Source: Candidatus Aminicenantes bacterium (lineage in GTDB: Bacteria; Acidobacteriota; Aminicenantia; Aminicenantales; Saccharicenantaceae). Taken from it: a DNA stretch of 64,000 nucleotides. Each line of letters begins with the position of its first letter. Position 1 is the stretch's first letter. Below the pieces are notes generated by a model. The model was not told where the DNA came from and ran no database searches. It was given only the letters and a program-made list of their open reading frames with translations. The DNA lies in assembly GCA_963727095.1 (NCBI GenBank), contig CAVSEQ010000003.1, positions 194,016 through 258,015 of the forward strand, read 5' to 3'. Shown here piece by piece: positions 11,847 through 27,459 of the stretch. Position numbers and translations under genes: made by a program.

Positions 11847-12503
11847 ATGGACACTGAGCGCGCGCGAATCAAGGAGATGATCCGGCTCCTGCGGAAGCAT
11901 TATGTCCGGGGCCGAACGTCGCTTGAATTCTCCAACCCTCTTGAGATTCTGGTGGCGACGATCCTGGCGGCCCAGGCCACGGACAAGCGGGTCAACATGA
12001 TCACGCCGGCCCTCTTCAAGAAATACCCGACGGCGGCTCACTTCGCCAGGGCAAGCCGGGCGGAGCTCGAAAAGGAGATTCGTTCCACGGGATTTTTCCG
12101 GAACAAAACGAAGTCCATCATCGGCGCGGCGAAAACAATCGTCGCCGATTTCGGGGGCCGCGTGCCGGACACCATGGAGGCGCTTGTCACGCTCCCGGGT
12201 GTGGCCCGCAAAACCGCCAACATCGTGCTGTCATCGGGCTTCGGCAAGGCCGAGGGCATCGCCGTCGACACCCACGCCCGGCGCCTGTCCCAAAGATTGG
12301 GGTTAAGCAAAGAAAAAGATCCGGTGAAGATCGAGCGCGACCTGATGGCGGTGATTCCGAAAAGAGACTGGCTCGATTTCAACTATTTGCTGGTCGAGCA
12401 CGGCCGGGCCGTTTGCCAGGCGCGGAAACCCAAGTGTCCGGAATGTTTCCTGAACGGGCTGTGTCCCTCGGCCAACGTTTTCTACCCCGACCTCGATATC
12501 TGA
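11847..12503 (+). CDS. nth: Endonuclease III
   Basis: HhH-GPD fold, C-terminal Cx6Cx2Cx5C 4Fe-4S cluster loop (CQARKPKCPECFLNGLC). Confidence 0.9.
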   Translation: MDTERARIKEMIRLLRKHYVRGRTSLEFSNPLEILVATILAAQATDKRVNMITPALFKKYPTAAHFARASRAELEKEIRSTGFFRNKTKSIIGAAKTIVADFGGRVPDTMEALVTLPGVARKTANIVLSSGFGKAEGIAVDTHARRLSQRLGLSKEKDPVKIERDLMAVIPKRDWLDFNYLLVEHGRAVCQARKPKCPECFLNGLCPSANVFYPDLDI

Positions 12504-13516
12504 TGATGAAAGACGCCATGCTCTGGAGCCCCGGGGAGGGCGGCAAGGCCGTCTGCGCCCTCTGCAGCCACCGCTGCGTCATCGCCCCGTCGAAATACGG
12601 GGTATGCGGGGTCAGGCAAAACGTCGACGGGCGGCTCCAAACCTACGCCTACGGCGAAGTGATCGCCGCCCACGTCGACCCCATCGAGAAGAAGCCGCTC
12701 TACCATTTCTATCCGGGTTCCAAGGCGTTTTCCGTTGCCACCGTCGGATGCAACTTCCGGTGCTCCTTTTGCCAGAACTGGGAGATTTCCCAGCCGGGGC
12801 AAAAGGGCCGCGGGACGGGCGGAACCCGGCTCTCGCCGGAGGGGATCGTCCGCGAAGCCCGGGCCGCCGGCTGCCGGAGCGTTTCTTATACGTACACCGA
12901 ACCGACGATCTTTTTTGAGTACGCCTTCGACACGGCCAAGCTCGCCCACGACGCCGGTTTGGCGAATTCTTTCGTCACCAACGGATACATAACACGGGAA
13001 GCGCTCGAAATCATCCGGCCCTGGCTTGACGCCGCGAACGTCGATTTGAAGGCGTTTAAGGACGAAACCTATAAAAAAGTCTGCGGGGCTCGGCTGGCGC
13101 CCGTGCTCGACGCGATCGGCCTCATGAAGAGCATGGGGATCTGGGTCGAGGTCACGACCTTGGTCGTGCCAGGCCTGAATGACGGCGACGAGGAACTCAC
13201 GGCGATCGCCCGTTTTATCGCCGGCGTCGATGTCGATATGCCGTGGCACATCAGCCGGTTCCATCCGGACTTCCAGTTGACCGACACCCCCCCGACGCCC
13301 GTTGGAACGCTGCGCAGGGCGCTCGCCCTTGGGCAGGCCGAAGGGCTTCACCATTGTTATGTCGGCAACATCTCCGGCGAGTCGGAGGACACGCGGTGCC
13401 CGCATTGCGGGGAGGCCGTCATCTTGCGACAGGGGTTTTTCGTCACGAGGAACAAAATCGTCGGGTCCCGCTGTCCCGTCTGCGGCCAAAGCATCGCCGG
13501 GCGTTTTGCCGACTGA
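12503..13516 (+). CDS. amrS: AmmeMemoRadiSam-system type radical SAM enzyme (AmrS-like)
   Basis: N-terminal CALCSHRC...C cluster plus radical SAM CNFRCSFCQNWEIS; start overlaps nth stop (TGATGATG). Confidence 0.8.
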   Translation: MMKDAMLWSPGEGGKAVCALCSHRCVIAPSKYGVCGVRQNVDGRLQTYAYGEVIAAHVDPIEKKPLYHFYPGSKAFSVATVGCNFRCSFCQNWEISQPGQKGRGTGGTRLSPEGIVREARAAGCRSVSYTYTEPTIFFEYAFDTAKLAHDAGLANSFVTNGYITREALEIIRPWLDAANVDLKAFKDETYKKVCGARLAPVLDAIGLMKSMGIWVEVTTLVVPGLNDGDEELTAIARFIAGVDVDMPWHISRFHPDFQLTDTPPTPVGTLRRALALGQAEGLHHCYVGNISGESEDTRCPHCGEAVILRQGFFVTRNKIVGSRCPVCGQSIAGRFAD

Positions 13517-13526
13517 TCGTGCCCTC

Positions 13527-13949
13527 ATGGACGCCTATCGGATTCTTCCCCATACCGCCGATGCCAAGTTCGAGGCCAGCGGTCGGACGCTCGAAGAGGC
13601 GTTCGGCAACGCGGCCCTGGCCCTGACCTCTCTCATGTGGGACTGGGCTGAAATCGAGCTGGCGCGCTGCTTTCCCGTCCATGTCCACGGGCTCGACAGA
13701 GAGCAGCTCCTGGTCAAATTTCTCAGCGAGATTCTTTATCTGCTCGATACCCGCTGTTTTCTTTTGGGCGCGGTTTCCGGCCTGGTCATCAGGGAGGCCG
13801 GCGGCGGCCTGGACCTCGAGGCGGAGTTCCGGGGCGATTTCCAATCCAACCGCTATAAAATTCACGGCGCCGCCAAGGCTGTAACCTATAGTGAAATGAA
13901 AATCGAAGAAGGCGAAGGCTTCAGGATCCAAGTCGTTGTCGACGTCTGA
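13527..13949 (+). CDS. Archease (RtcB activator)
   Basis: LPHTADAKF...HG...VKAVTYSEMKIE conserved archease pattern, 140 aa; 10 nt after amrS. Confidence 0.8.
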   Translation: MDAYRILPHTADAKFEASGRTLEEAFGNAALALTSLMWDWAEIELARCFPVHVHGLDREQLLVKFLSEILYLLDTRCFLLGAVSGLVIREAGGGLDLEAEFRGDFQSNRYKIHGAAKAVTYSEMKIEEGEGFRIQVVVDV

Positions 13950-13957
13950 GGAATATC

Positions 13958-15378
13958 ATGGAACTGCGCAAGATCAACGAGATCACCTGGGAGATTCCCA
14001 AACAGGGGGACATGAACGTTCCGGCTCTCATCTATGCGTCCGAAAAGTTGTTGGCCGACGTGCGGCGTGACATGACCCTGACCCAGGCCCGGAACGTGGC
14101 CTGCCTGCCGGGAATCCAATGCATGTCATACGTCATGCCCGACGCGCACCAGGGGTACGGCTTTCCGATCGGCGGTGTCGCGGCCTTCGACCTGGACGAG
14201 GGTGTCATTTCGCCGGGCGGGGTCGGCTATGATATCAACTGCGGCGTCCGGCTGCTCCGGAGCGATTTCACGGACAAGGACGTCACGGAGAAACGCAAGG
14301 AGCTTTTGGCCGAAATTTTTCAAGAGGTTCCAGCCGGCGTGGGGAAAGGGGGCGTCACCAGGCTCACCCGAAAGGTCCTCGCGGACATTCTCGTCAAAGG
14401 CGCGGAATGGGCCGTGGAGAATGGGTACGGCACGCACGACGATCTCGAGCGGACCGAGGAATACGGCCGCATGAAGGACGCGGACCCGGCCGGACTATCC
14501 GAGCGCGCTTTGGAACGCGGCGTTCCCCAACTCGGCACGCTCGGCGCCGGCAACCATTTTCTCGAAATTCAAAAAGTCGTCGAGATTCAGGACAGGAACG
14601 CGGCCGACGCTTTCGGGATCACTTCGGTGGGTCAGATCCTGATCATGATCCATTGCGGCAGCCGCGGCCTTGGGCATCAGGTCGCGACGGACTTCATCGA
14701 ACTCATGGAAAACGCCTTTGGGACCAAGGGGCTGCCCGACCGCGAGCTGGTCAACGCGCCCTTTCGTTCCGCCCTCGGCCAGCGCTATTATCGTTCGATG
14801 TGCGGCGCGGTGAATTACGCGTTTGCCAATCGTCAAATGATTGCCCACTGGGTCCGCAACGTTTTCGCCAAGGTCATGGGAACGGCCGCCGGGATGGGGC
14901 AGATCTACGATGTCTGTCATAACGTCGCCAAGGTCGAGAAGCACGACTTGGGGGGCGCGCCGTGGATCTTTGCGTCCACCGCAAAGGCGCGACGCGCAGC
15001 TTCGGCCCGGGCCGGCCGGAGATCCCCGCCGCGTACAGGTCTATCGGCCAGCCGGTTCTGATTCCCGGCAGCATGGGGACGGCGTCCTATGTCCTGGTCG
15101 GCACCGCCGAGGCAGAACGGTTGAGCTTCAGCTCCACGGCCCACGGCGCGGGGCGGGTCATGTCCAGGCACGAAGCCATGCGGCGTTTCCGAGGGGAGCG
15201 CATCCGCGACGAGATGGCGGCCAGGGGGATCGAGCTCAAGGCGACGAGCTGGAAGGGCGTCGCCGAGGAAGCCGCCCCCGCCTATAAGGACGTGGACGAG
15301 GTCGTGCGGGTTTCCCACGAAGTCGGCCTCGGCCGGATCGTGGCGCGGCTTGTCCCCGTCGGCGTCATGAAAGGATAG
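13958..15378 (+). CDS. rtcB: RNA-splicing ligase RtcB, interrupted by an apparent -1 frameshift near 14950-14960 (poly-G run); N-part frame 2 to ~14955, C-part frame 1 from ~14962
   Basis: ORFs 13958..15061 and 14962..15378 are both RtcB ([24 protein letters not shown] | [23 protein letters not shown]); reading one extra G gives the expected ...[21 protein letters not shown]... Confidence 0.85.
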
Positions 15379-15548: not shown

Positions 15549-17150
15549 TTGAGGCTTGGAACCGACTCCTCGGTGGATTTGCGTCAGCGGGAGGCCGCTC
15601 TTTGCCCCGTTGACTTTTCGGACGGCCGTTCATATAAAGGATGCATGCGTGTCGTGCTGGCCGGATACAATGTGGACAGCTCCGTCCTCGAGGAACTAAA
15701 GAAGAACTCGCCGCCGCGCGACGATGTGACGCCGGAAACGCTCTCGGCGTCATACGCCCGCATCTCGAGAGACCCCCGTCCTGCCGACGAACTGAGGGCC
15801 GCGGCCCGGTCTGAGGTCGAACGGGCCCGCCGATCGAATGCGGCCATTATTTTTAAAATGGGCCATCATTCAGTGGCCGAGCATGCCGTTTTTAATTTCG
15901 ACATCATCGGGGTCAGCCGGCTGGCCATCGAGGAAATCGAACGATTCCGGCTCTGTTCTTTCACGGAAAAGTCGCAGCGCTATATCACGCTTGGAAGCGA
16001 TTTCGTGGTCCCCGCGGAGATCACGCGCGCCGGCAAGGCTAAGGTTTTCGTCGCGACCGTCAAGGCCCAGAACGCCCTTTATCACCGTTTGTTCGAAAAG
16101 CTCAAGCCTTTCTTTTTTGAGACGCACCGCGCGGAAGCGGCCGATCCGAGGAACCGGGCAATCCTCGAAGGCTGGGCCAAAGAAGACGCGCGCTACATCG
16201 TGAGCCTGGCGACGGAAGGCCAGCTCGGCATGACCATCAACGCCCGCAACCTCGAGCTTCTCATCCGGCGCTTTGCCGGCAGGAATAGCGACGAAATACG
16301 GGAGATCAGCGGCCGGATCGCCTCCTTGGCAAGGGAGGTGGCCCCTTCCATCATCCTGTTCACCGAGGCCTCTGAATTCGATGCCAAGACTCCCCTCGGC
16401 ACAGGGGCCGCCGTGTCCGCTCTTCTCCCGGCGGGCGGCTTTGCCCGCACCAGCCGGGCCTCTGCCCGCACGCCCGTGGCCCTGGCCGGCTGCACACCCG
16501 ATGGGGATGCGCAAATCCTCGCCGCCCTGCTCCACACGGCCTCCCATCTGAGCTACGATCAGTGCCTCCGAAGGGTGAAGAGGGCATCCTCGGCCGGCCG
16601 GCGCAACCTCGCCCGGAGCGCCTTCCGGCATATGGAGTTCTACGACTTTCCTCTTCGAGAATTCGAATACGCCGGCTTCCTGTTCGACCTCGTGGTATCG
16701 GCGTCGTGCTTTGCCCAGCTCAAGCGTCACCGGATGGCGACGCTGACCTGTCAAGGCTATGATCCCGCCCTGGGCGTCACTGTGCCGCCCTCGATCGAAG
16801 CCGTCGGCGCCGCGTCCGAATTCCGAGACTTGATCGGCCGCACGGATGACGTCCACGGCAGGCTCGCGAAAGAGGTCGGCCCGGCCGCCGATTATGTGCT
16901 GACCAACGCCCACCGGCGCCGGGTTCTCCTTGGAGTTAACGTGCGCGAGCTCTATCACATCTCCCGGCTCAGAGAGGATGCGACCGCGCAATGGGAGATC
17001 CGGAAGCTCGCGGCCGGGATGACGCGGCTGGCAAAAAAACGGATGCCGCTGGCCTGCCTGCTCCTCGGCGGAAAGGACGCCTATCCGGAAATCTACAAAA
17101 AGGTCTTCGGACGTCCGCCGCAAATGAAGCCGCCGAAGATGTTCAGCTGA
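15549..17150 (+). CDS. thyX: Flavin-dependent thymidylate synthase ThyX, tandem two-domain form (start possibly ATG 15645)
   Basis: Domain 1 SRLAIEEIERFRLCSFTEKSQRY (ThyX SQRY motif, RHR degraded to RFR); domain 2 LKRHRMATLTCQGY (RHR retained, SQRY degraded). Confidence 0.6.
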   Translation: MRLGTDSSVDLRQREAALCPVDFSDGRSYKGCMRVVLAGYNVDSSVLEELKKNSPPRDDVTPETLSASYARISRDPRPADELRAAARSEVERARRSNAAIIFKMGHHSVAEHAVFNFDIIGVSRLAIEEIERFRLCSFTEKSQRYITLGSDFVVPAEITRAGKAKVFVATVKAQNALYHRLFEKLKPFFFETHRAEAADPRNRAILEGWAKEDARYIVSLATEGQLGMTINARNLELLIRRFAGRNSDEIREISGRIASLAREVAPSIILFTEASEFDAKTPLGTGAAVSALLPAGGFARTSRASARTPVALAGCTPDGDAQILAALLHTASHLSYDQCLRRVKRASSAGRRNLARSAFRHMEFYDFPLREFEYAGFLFDLVVSASCFAQLKRHRMATLTCQGYDPALGVTVPPSIEAVGAASEFRDLIGRTDDVHGRLAKEVGPAADYVLTNAHRRRVLLGVNVRELYHISRLREDATAQWEIRKLAAGMTRLAKKRMPLACLLLGGKDAYPEIYKKVFGRPPQMKPPKMFS

Positions 17151-25450: not shown

Positions 25451-25524
25451 GCCAGCGTAGCTCAGTTAGGTAGAGCGGCTGATTTGTAATCAGCGGGTCA
25501 GGGGTTCGAATCCCTTCGCTGGCT
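25451..25524 (+). tRNA. thrU: tRNA-Thr (anticodon TGT)
   Basis: Cloverleaf: acceptor GCCAGCG/CGCTGGC, anticodon loop TTTGTAA, T-loop TTCGAAT. Confidence 0.85.
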
Positions 25525-25628
25525 TAAAAGCGGCGATAGAACGCGCTATCTGGCAACGGAATATCCTGACCCTGACGGAGGGATGCTTATCCTGGTCGAA
25601 CGTGGGCATCGAAAGTGATTCATGGCTT

Positions 25629-25711
25629 GGGCAGGTTCCAGAGTGGCCAAATGGGGCGGGCTGTAAACCCGCTGCGGAAACGCTTCGGAGGTTCGAATCC
25701 TTCCCTGCCCA
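25629..25711 (+). tRNA. tyrU: tRNA-Tyr (anticodon GTA), long variable arm
   Basis: Acceptor GGGCAGG/CCTGCCC, anticodon loop CTGTAAA, long variable arm, T-loop TTCGAAT. Confidence 0.85.
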
Positions 25712-25715
25712 CTTC

Positions 25716-25789
<74 letters not shown>

Positions 25790-25807
25790 CTTGTTCGAGC
25801 ATGTTGG

Positions 25808-25880
25808 GCCCAAGTAGCTCAGTTGGCAGAGCACGTCCTTGGTAAGGACGGGGTCACCAGTTCAATTCTGGTCTTGGGCT
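25808..25880 (+). tRNA. thrT: tRNA-Thr (anticodon GGT)
   Basis: Acceptor GCCCAAG/CTTGGGC, anticodon loop TTGGTAA. Confidence 0.85.
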
Positions 25881-25933
25881 TTCGTTTTAGACGGGGATGG
25901 TCCTCAGAGATAGGGCGCCGGGAGGTATGAAGG

Positions 25934-27383: not shown

Positions 27384-27459
<76 letters not shown>

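Follow-up and report, generated by a model that had tools for sequence, protein, structure and literature searches.

The rtcB gene in the window (the whole stretch of 64,000 nucleotides that was analysed) is recorded as two overlapping plus-strand open reading frames that fall out of register within a run of six G, and our verdict is that this is an ordinary contraction of seven G to six which calls for no new mechanism. We infer an artefact, not a mutation, behind the missing base, and consider its cause to be probably, if by no means certainly, a consensus error of the assembly. The genome would carry seven G (TTG GGG GGG CGC, Leu-Gly-Gly-Arg) that were recorded as six; the one-base homopolymer contraction would have arisen during consensus calling of a long-read metagenome assembly; and the organism itself would make an ordinary 473-residue RtcB ligase, partnered with the archease encoded just 5′ of it.

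The two frames extend from 13958 to 15061 (367 residues) and from 14962 to 15378 (138 residues, counted mechanically from GTG 14962; the downstream gene call in the public record is 101 residues). These are exactly the coordinates given in an earlier sequence-only reading of this DNA, which had also proposed that both halves are RtcB and that the frame switches inside a run of six G; both proposals hold. The upstream frame matches positions 1-296 of the 426-position Pfam RtcB profile (PF01139; E = 9.6e-108), the downstream frame matches positions 293-426 (E = 4.5e-54), and together they cover the profile in full. The two frames are consecutive pieces of a single RtcB domain, and hence of one gene, an arrangement that cannot be chance. 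The match of the 367-residue frame stops at residue 337, and no RtcB homology is found in its 34-residue tail. As recorded, then, the gene lacks the uninterrupted reading frame of its family, and the break can be placed narrowly: i) the codon CAC at 14942-14944, specifying an invariant His, requires frame 2, and CGC at 14956-14958 requires frame 1, so that the indel is confined to 14945-14955 (GACTTGGGGGG); ii) this interval contains the run of exactly six G at 14950-14955, within TTGGGGGGCGCGCC; and iii) insertion of one G yields a 473-residue RtcB, from which the intact state would be seven G, with TTG GGG GGG CGC encoding L-G-G-R. Deletion of two G was also tried as a repair and was rejected, since the resulting 472 residues are one fewer than in every ungapped orthologue.

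Table 1. Features of the rtcB region, in positions of the 64-kb window
Feature	Positions	Strand	Basis
Radical SAM gene, intact, 5′ of archease	12413..13516	+	Pfam PF04055
Archease gene, 140 aa, RtcB activator, intact	13527..13949	+	Pfam PF01951, 1-136 of 136
rtcB N-terminal part, 333 codons, frame 2	13958..14955	+	PF01139 1-296
G6 homopolymer, frame break	14950..14955	+	Flanking codon frames, one-G repair
G_GGG_GGC heptamer, formal X_XXY_YYZ -1 site	14950..14956	+	In phase with ATG 13958
Out-of-frame tail of upstream ORF, 34 residues then stop	14956..15061	+	Translation
rtcB C-terminal part, 140 codons, frame 1	14956..15378	+	PF01139 293-426

The repaired protein is a complete RtcB by comparison with the enzyme of Pyrococcus horikoshii (PDB 1UC2/4DWQ): residues 3-473 align with P. 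horikoshii residues 5-481 (E = 4e-173), and the alignment is colinear and ungapped at the junction. All six catalytic residues are present, five in the upstream part and one in the downstream part. D92, C95, H200, H232, and H321, encoded 5′ of the break, correspond to the metal ligands Asp95, Cys98, His203, His234, and His329 of the P. horikoshii enzyme, and His396, encoded 3′ of the break at 15142-15144, corresponds to His404, the guanylylated nucleophile (roles from PMC9745838). Because the nucleophile is missing and the last 34 residues are unrelated to RtcB, the 367-residue product as written would be inactive.

We compared the gene with orthologues at 80 loci from a scan of GTDB species representatives, most of them titled Candidatus Aminicenantes, Aminicenantales, or Saccharicenans, and the remainder carrying other or generic titles; the window is accordingly assigned to an uncultured member of this group. 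At all 80 loci rtcB crosses the junction in one frame (as a single tblastn match in 79); 79 of the 80 orthologues are ungapped at 473 residues against the window gene with one G added, just as expected from the earlier claim that an added G would restore a typical RtcB junction; and in 79 the loop H-x-x-[G/D/N]-G-x-x-x-x-[L/V]-C is the same size as in the window gene so repaired. In the database, the best relatives share 83% identity with the repaired protein, and nearly all are 473 residues long. The break itself, for which comparison with related rtcB genes had been suggested as a check, is seen in 0 of the 80 species-representative genomes, nor does it occur in the full-length proteins among the top 120 database matches listed. 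Its position is in the segment between invariant blocks that varies most; there most orthologues have interrupted Gly codons (for example GGC GGN) and several have G-rich Gly-Gly codons (seven G at locus L076 and six at L019, both in frame); because of these G-rich relatives, seven G is a natural ancestral state. Two loci of the set, L018 and L023, lie on different contigs of one MAG (MFD04408.bin.2.57), each with a full rtcB, at roughly 77% identity to the query in both cases; either a gene duplication or a bin in which two genomes are mixed could account for this.

The neighborhood of the gene is conserved. Archease lies directly 5′ of rtcB in the window, and at 79 of the 80 loci it neighbors rtcB on the same strand, within 100 nt of it at 71; a radical SAM gene is present on the same strand at 67 loci (median alignment 363 residues), and an endonuclease III-like gene near rtcB at 62. 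The radical SAM and archease proteins of the window align over their full length with their orthologues. The view taken from the letters alone, that the flanking archease and radical SAM genes are intact and the operon otherwise looks functional, is thus borne out: archease covers 136 of 136 profile positions, thyX is intact too, and the archease-rtcB pair recurs at 79 loci. Because rtcB and archease form so conserved a core pair, loss of rtcB would be unusual.

Comparison of window positions 11847-15378 with loci L001-L080 shows a gene order that is widespread in Aminicenantes, with endonuclease III-like, radical SAM, archease, and rtcB genes following one another on a single strand. The distance between the radical SAM gene and rtcB exceeds that in the window by about 900 nt in many relatives, which points to an additional gene at that place. 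The thyX gene 3′ of rtcB (15549-17150, plus strand) encodes 533 residues with two Thy1 (PF02511) stretches, about twice the usual size of ThyX; it looks like a tandem-fused double-domain protein, and since its relatives align over about 503 residues at 41 of the 80 Aminicenantes loci, the fusion appears to be conserved. Scanning the operon for promoters and terminators gave nothing informative.

In the 140 residues of the downstream part, read in the shifted frame, all 66 columns that are invariant in the 78 orthologues kept are preserved; mean identity to the orthologues is 79.9% for the downstream part vs 77.0% for the upstream part; and the divergence of the downstream part from the orthologue regression (residual -0.010) is well within the variation between taxa (sd 0.015). 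The downstream part contains no further stop or frameshift, and no decay was detected; the further lesions and relaxed constraint that mark a pseudogene are both lacking. Because of this, the lesion would have to be unreal, very recent, or bypassed.

The second of these readings holds that a recent slipped-strand deletion of one G inactivated rtcB, leaving a recently formed pseudogene among intact operon genes, and a 367-residue product that would keep the metal ligands and lose His396 together with the C-terminal third of the enzyme, and with them guanylylation. We regard this as a possibility to be taken seriously, and on the whole doubt it. Genuine indel mutations also arise at homopolymers, and a one-base deletion in a G run that truncates the protein before its catalytic nucleophile (PMC9745838) is just what a slipped-strand frameshift pseudogene would be expected to display. 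Unlike such pseudogenes, however, rtcB has neither secondary lesions nor relaxed constraint, so that with 66 of 66 invariant columns intact only a very recent event would fit; rtcB is retained throughout the phylum-level set examined, intact in all 80 related species and closely linked to archease; and no second, independent strain shows the allele, there being on record no other strain of the species by which its fixation might be judged. Bacterial RtcB is a stress or RNA-repair enzyme whose loss is possible in laboratory strains, and this we count in favor of a real deletion.

The state of the surrounding sequence bears on both readings. A frame-switch scan of both strands, using a codon-usage model trained on the known genes of the window, placed every sense-strand switch at a natural gene end except the one in rtcB, where the coding potential changes about 90-110 nt before the stop of the upstream frame; this is the sole internal frame switch in 64 kb. 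The window contains 16 G or C runs of at least 6 nt, and the reading frame is broken only at the rtcB run, the other 15 (6-7 nt) being without frame breaks. Because there is no other internal switch and these 15 runs are unbroken, the assembly is not generally error-prone. Local assembly quality is good, with one suspect site in the 64 kb, and no further error of the same kind was found within this 64-kb window of the 808-kb contig. Such clean surroundings, the 15 other runs included, speak for a real run of six G.

Frames of the size of rpoB, rpoC, EF-G/EF-Tu, and ribosomal proteins are uninterrupted, the assignments being putative and by size. A tRNA cluster Thr-Tyr-Gly-Thr (25451-25881) and a separate tRNA-Trp (27384-27459), both on the plus strand, precede a long run of plus-strand frames, all uninterrupted; between 30.5-38.9 kb this run has two frames with some 1,430 and 1,440 codons, and by position and size only it is putatively read as the tuf, rpoB/rpoC, and ribosomal-protein blocks. 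No Rfam family besides the tRNAs reached threshold in the window. Close to the break, an 8-bp palindrome, GGCGCGCC (14954-14961, with GCGCGC inside it), shares bases with the 3′ end of the G run and is followed 5 nt on by a GATC; methylation of either, if present, could bias nanopore base-calling at the G run.

The public record of the allele is sparse. The exact 367-residue product, the 101-residue downstream call, and the archease each occur on two contigs only: an NCBI/ENA contig of 808,012 bp, evidently the source of the window, and a Logan contig of 3,258 bp assembled from run ERR11594405. Occurrence of the allele in two assemblies favors a real run of six G, and would speak against a consensus error if run ERR11594405 were short-read; but both assemblies could have been built from one set of reads, and their independence is not to be assumed. 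Protein searches against 5.8 billion clusters, with the repaired protein, the 367-residue fragment, and a 173-residue junction-spanning segment as queries, found neither an intact seven-G allele from the same species nor another six-G allele; the best non-self matches in these clusters are 83-85% identical, and no other junction-spanning protein exceeds 85%. Nor did the exact DNA pattern of the junction, with either six or seven G, have any match (0) in JGI metagenome contigs.

Long reads are suggested by the sheer length of a metagenomic contig of 808 kb. Among the closest relatives are many Nanopore-only MAGs of the Microflora Danica project, assembled with Flye and given one round of Medaka polishing (PMC12313526). 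The window would thus appear to come from Nanopore or other long-read data. Homopolymer indels that fragment gene calls are a known residual error of Nanopore consensus (PMC9262707; PMC12313526). The rtcB break resembles these errors in that it lies in a homopolymer as a one-base contraction, leaves two overlapping frames of one family, is accompanied by no other damage, and is repaired by a single base that restores the full orthologous protein. It differs in that current chemistries usually resolve a run this short, 6-7 nt, at consensus, and in that the 64-kb window holds no second error of this sort. Counting against an error, too, is the finding that with R10.4 chemistry and adequate coverage the consensus is right for most homopolymers shorter than 11 nt (PMC9262707). 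Our moderately firm preference for a consensus error sets the probable origin from long reads against two counterweights, the clean surroundings and the existence of a second assembly.

Breaks of the same general kind are found in rtcB on four related public Aminicenantes contigs whose RtcB calls are fragmentary: L081 (JGI 3300043312) and L082-L084 (ENA ERZ25039515, ERZ25039519, and ERZ25039513, with Flye-style names). The gene is broken on all four, always elsewhere than at the site in the window, and at two or more positions on L082-L084; contracted CCC and GGG runs are clear on L081; and NAPRTase, radical SAM, or thyX is also fragmented on L081 and L082. Indel errors thus commonly fragment the rtcB operon in public assemblies. 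A recurrent hot spot at the site in the window was considered and ruled out, since all four contigs break at other positions. The four look like error-ridden assemblies, and their fragment proteins populate the protein databases; on L083, positions 256-2838 are called as one gene of 860 residues with HhH-GPD, Radical_SAM, Archease, and RtcB Pfam matches, presumably an artefactual merged call across a frameshifted operon.

There remains the third possibility, that the lesion is real and bypassed. A full-length RtcB of exactly 473 residues might be made from six G by -1 ribosomal slippage on G_GGG_GGC, in which the Gly tRNAs would pair anew with GGG GGG and translation would resume at CGC; by slippage of RNA polymerase on the G run; or, in a variant of the same idea, by population-level phase variation of the G tract. 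We consider recoding or phase variation very improbable. The heptamer is a perfect X_XXY_YYZ in the upstream frame, a -1 shift on it gives orthologous sequence and 473 residues, and the downstream part looks fully constrained. The break is nevertheless found in none of the 80 orthologous genomes, and the site, with its mostly interrupted Gly codons, carries no conserved recoding signal. The motif itself is among the poorest classes in E. coli: G_GG.G_GG.U is the lowest of all 64 heptamers (0.018%), and G_GG.G_GG.C is not among the motifs that exceed 0.1% without a stimulator (PMC4066793). A term count for rtcB in the GeneTack frameshift survey (PMC3711429) gave 0.

Downstream structure offers recoding no better footing. 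A stimulatory hairpin or pseudoknot is expected about 5-9 nt after a -1 heptamer. The 84 nt downstream (14957-15040), folded by minimum free energy without pseudoknots, are much like their shuffles (-39.1 vs -36.6 ± 3.5 kcal/mol, z = -0.73, with 45 of 200 shuffles as stable), so that no stimulatory structure is evident; a small hairpin 3′ of the G run sits in the conserved C-V-H-R-K-G codons. Like the programmed -1 frameshifting of dnaX and of the IS3/IS911 transposases, the rtcB heptamer is a zero-frame X_XXY_YYZ whose -1 product is the full-length protein; unlike them, it belongs to the poorest class of motif, is without a significant stimulator at the right spacing, and has no counterpart in any orthologue, whereas their sites are conserved across relatives. 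We therefore rejected programmed frameshifting as a candidate, the heptamer being present but unconserved, poor as a motif, and unaccompanied by significant structure, and judge the heptamer to be incidental.

Phase variation fares similarly. Phase-variable tracts are typically about 8 nt or longer, and transcriptional slippage occurs on runs of about 9 A or T, both longer than the rtcB run, which has 6 nt, or 7 if repaired. On/off switching by one G is formally possible, as at the phase-variable poly-G/C loci of Neisseria, Haemophilus, and Campylobacter; in contrast to those loci, the rtcB tract is much shorter and is unconserved in relatives, and rtcB encodes a housekeeping or repair enzyme rather than a surface or restriction-modification function. 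The sequence-only reading had named, without preferring any, a homopolymer error, a recent inactivating mutation, and phase variation or programmed slippage; the first two stand, and the last is unlikely in view of 0 of 80 orthologues, a 6-nt tract, a weak motif, and no significant fold.

Six G could also be real if RtcB were a two-piece enzyme, consisting of an N-terminal fragment (residues 1-333 plus the 34-residue tail) and a C-terminal fragment restarted at GTG 14962, with the G run 6 nt 5′ of the GTG acting as a weak Shine-Dalgarno-like element. In its favor, the GTG does fall 6 nt after GGGGGG, and the break lies where the sequence between invariant blocks varies most. Against it, no relative has a conserved rtcB split of this kind, GGGGGG is unlike the GAGGA-type site upstream of the rtcB start, the active site would be divided, with metal ligands and nucleophile on separate fragments, and the idea is purely formal. 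We find such an enzyme barely credible. Taken together, recoding, phase variation, and a split enzyme still amount to a slim prospect, and a true six-G genome with functional RtcB, through low-level -1 slippage or a two-fragment ligase, is highly unlikely. If true, recoding would have rescued a frameshifted RNA-repair gene in a lineage-specific way, and the case would be interesting only if full-length protein is made.

For annotation, the 367-residue frame and the 101- or 138-residue downstream frame are best handled as a single gene in which a one-base homopolymer error is suspected or, alternatively, flagged as a frameshifted pseudogene; they should be counted neither as two proteins nor as a new, truncated form of RtcB. 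Biologically the break carries little weight, and since each of the two leading explanations is a well-known phenomenon we consider its interest to be low. If the six G were real, the window would provide a single example of the very recent loss of a gene that is universal in the 80 Aminicenantes genomes examined.
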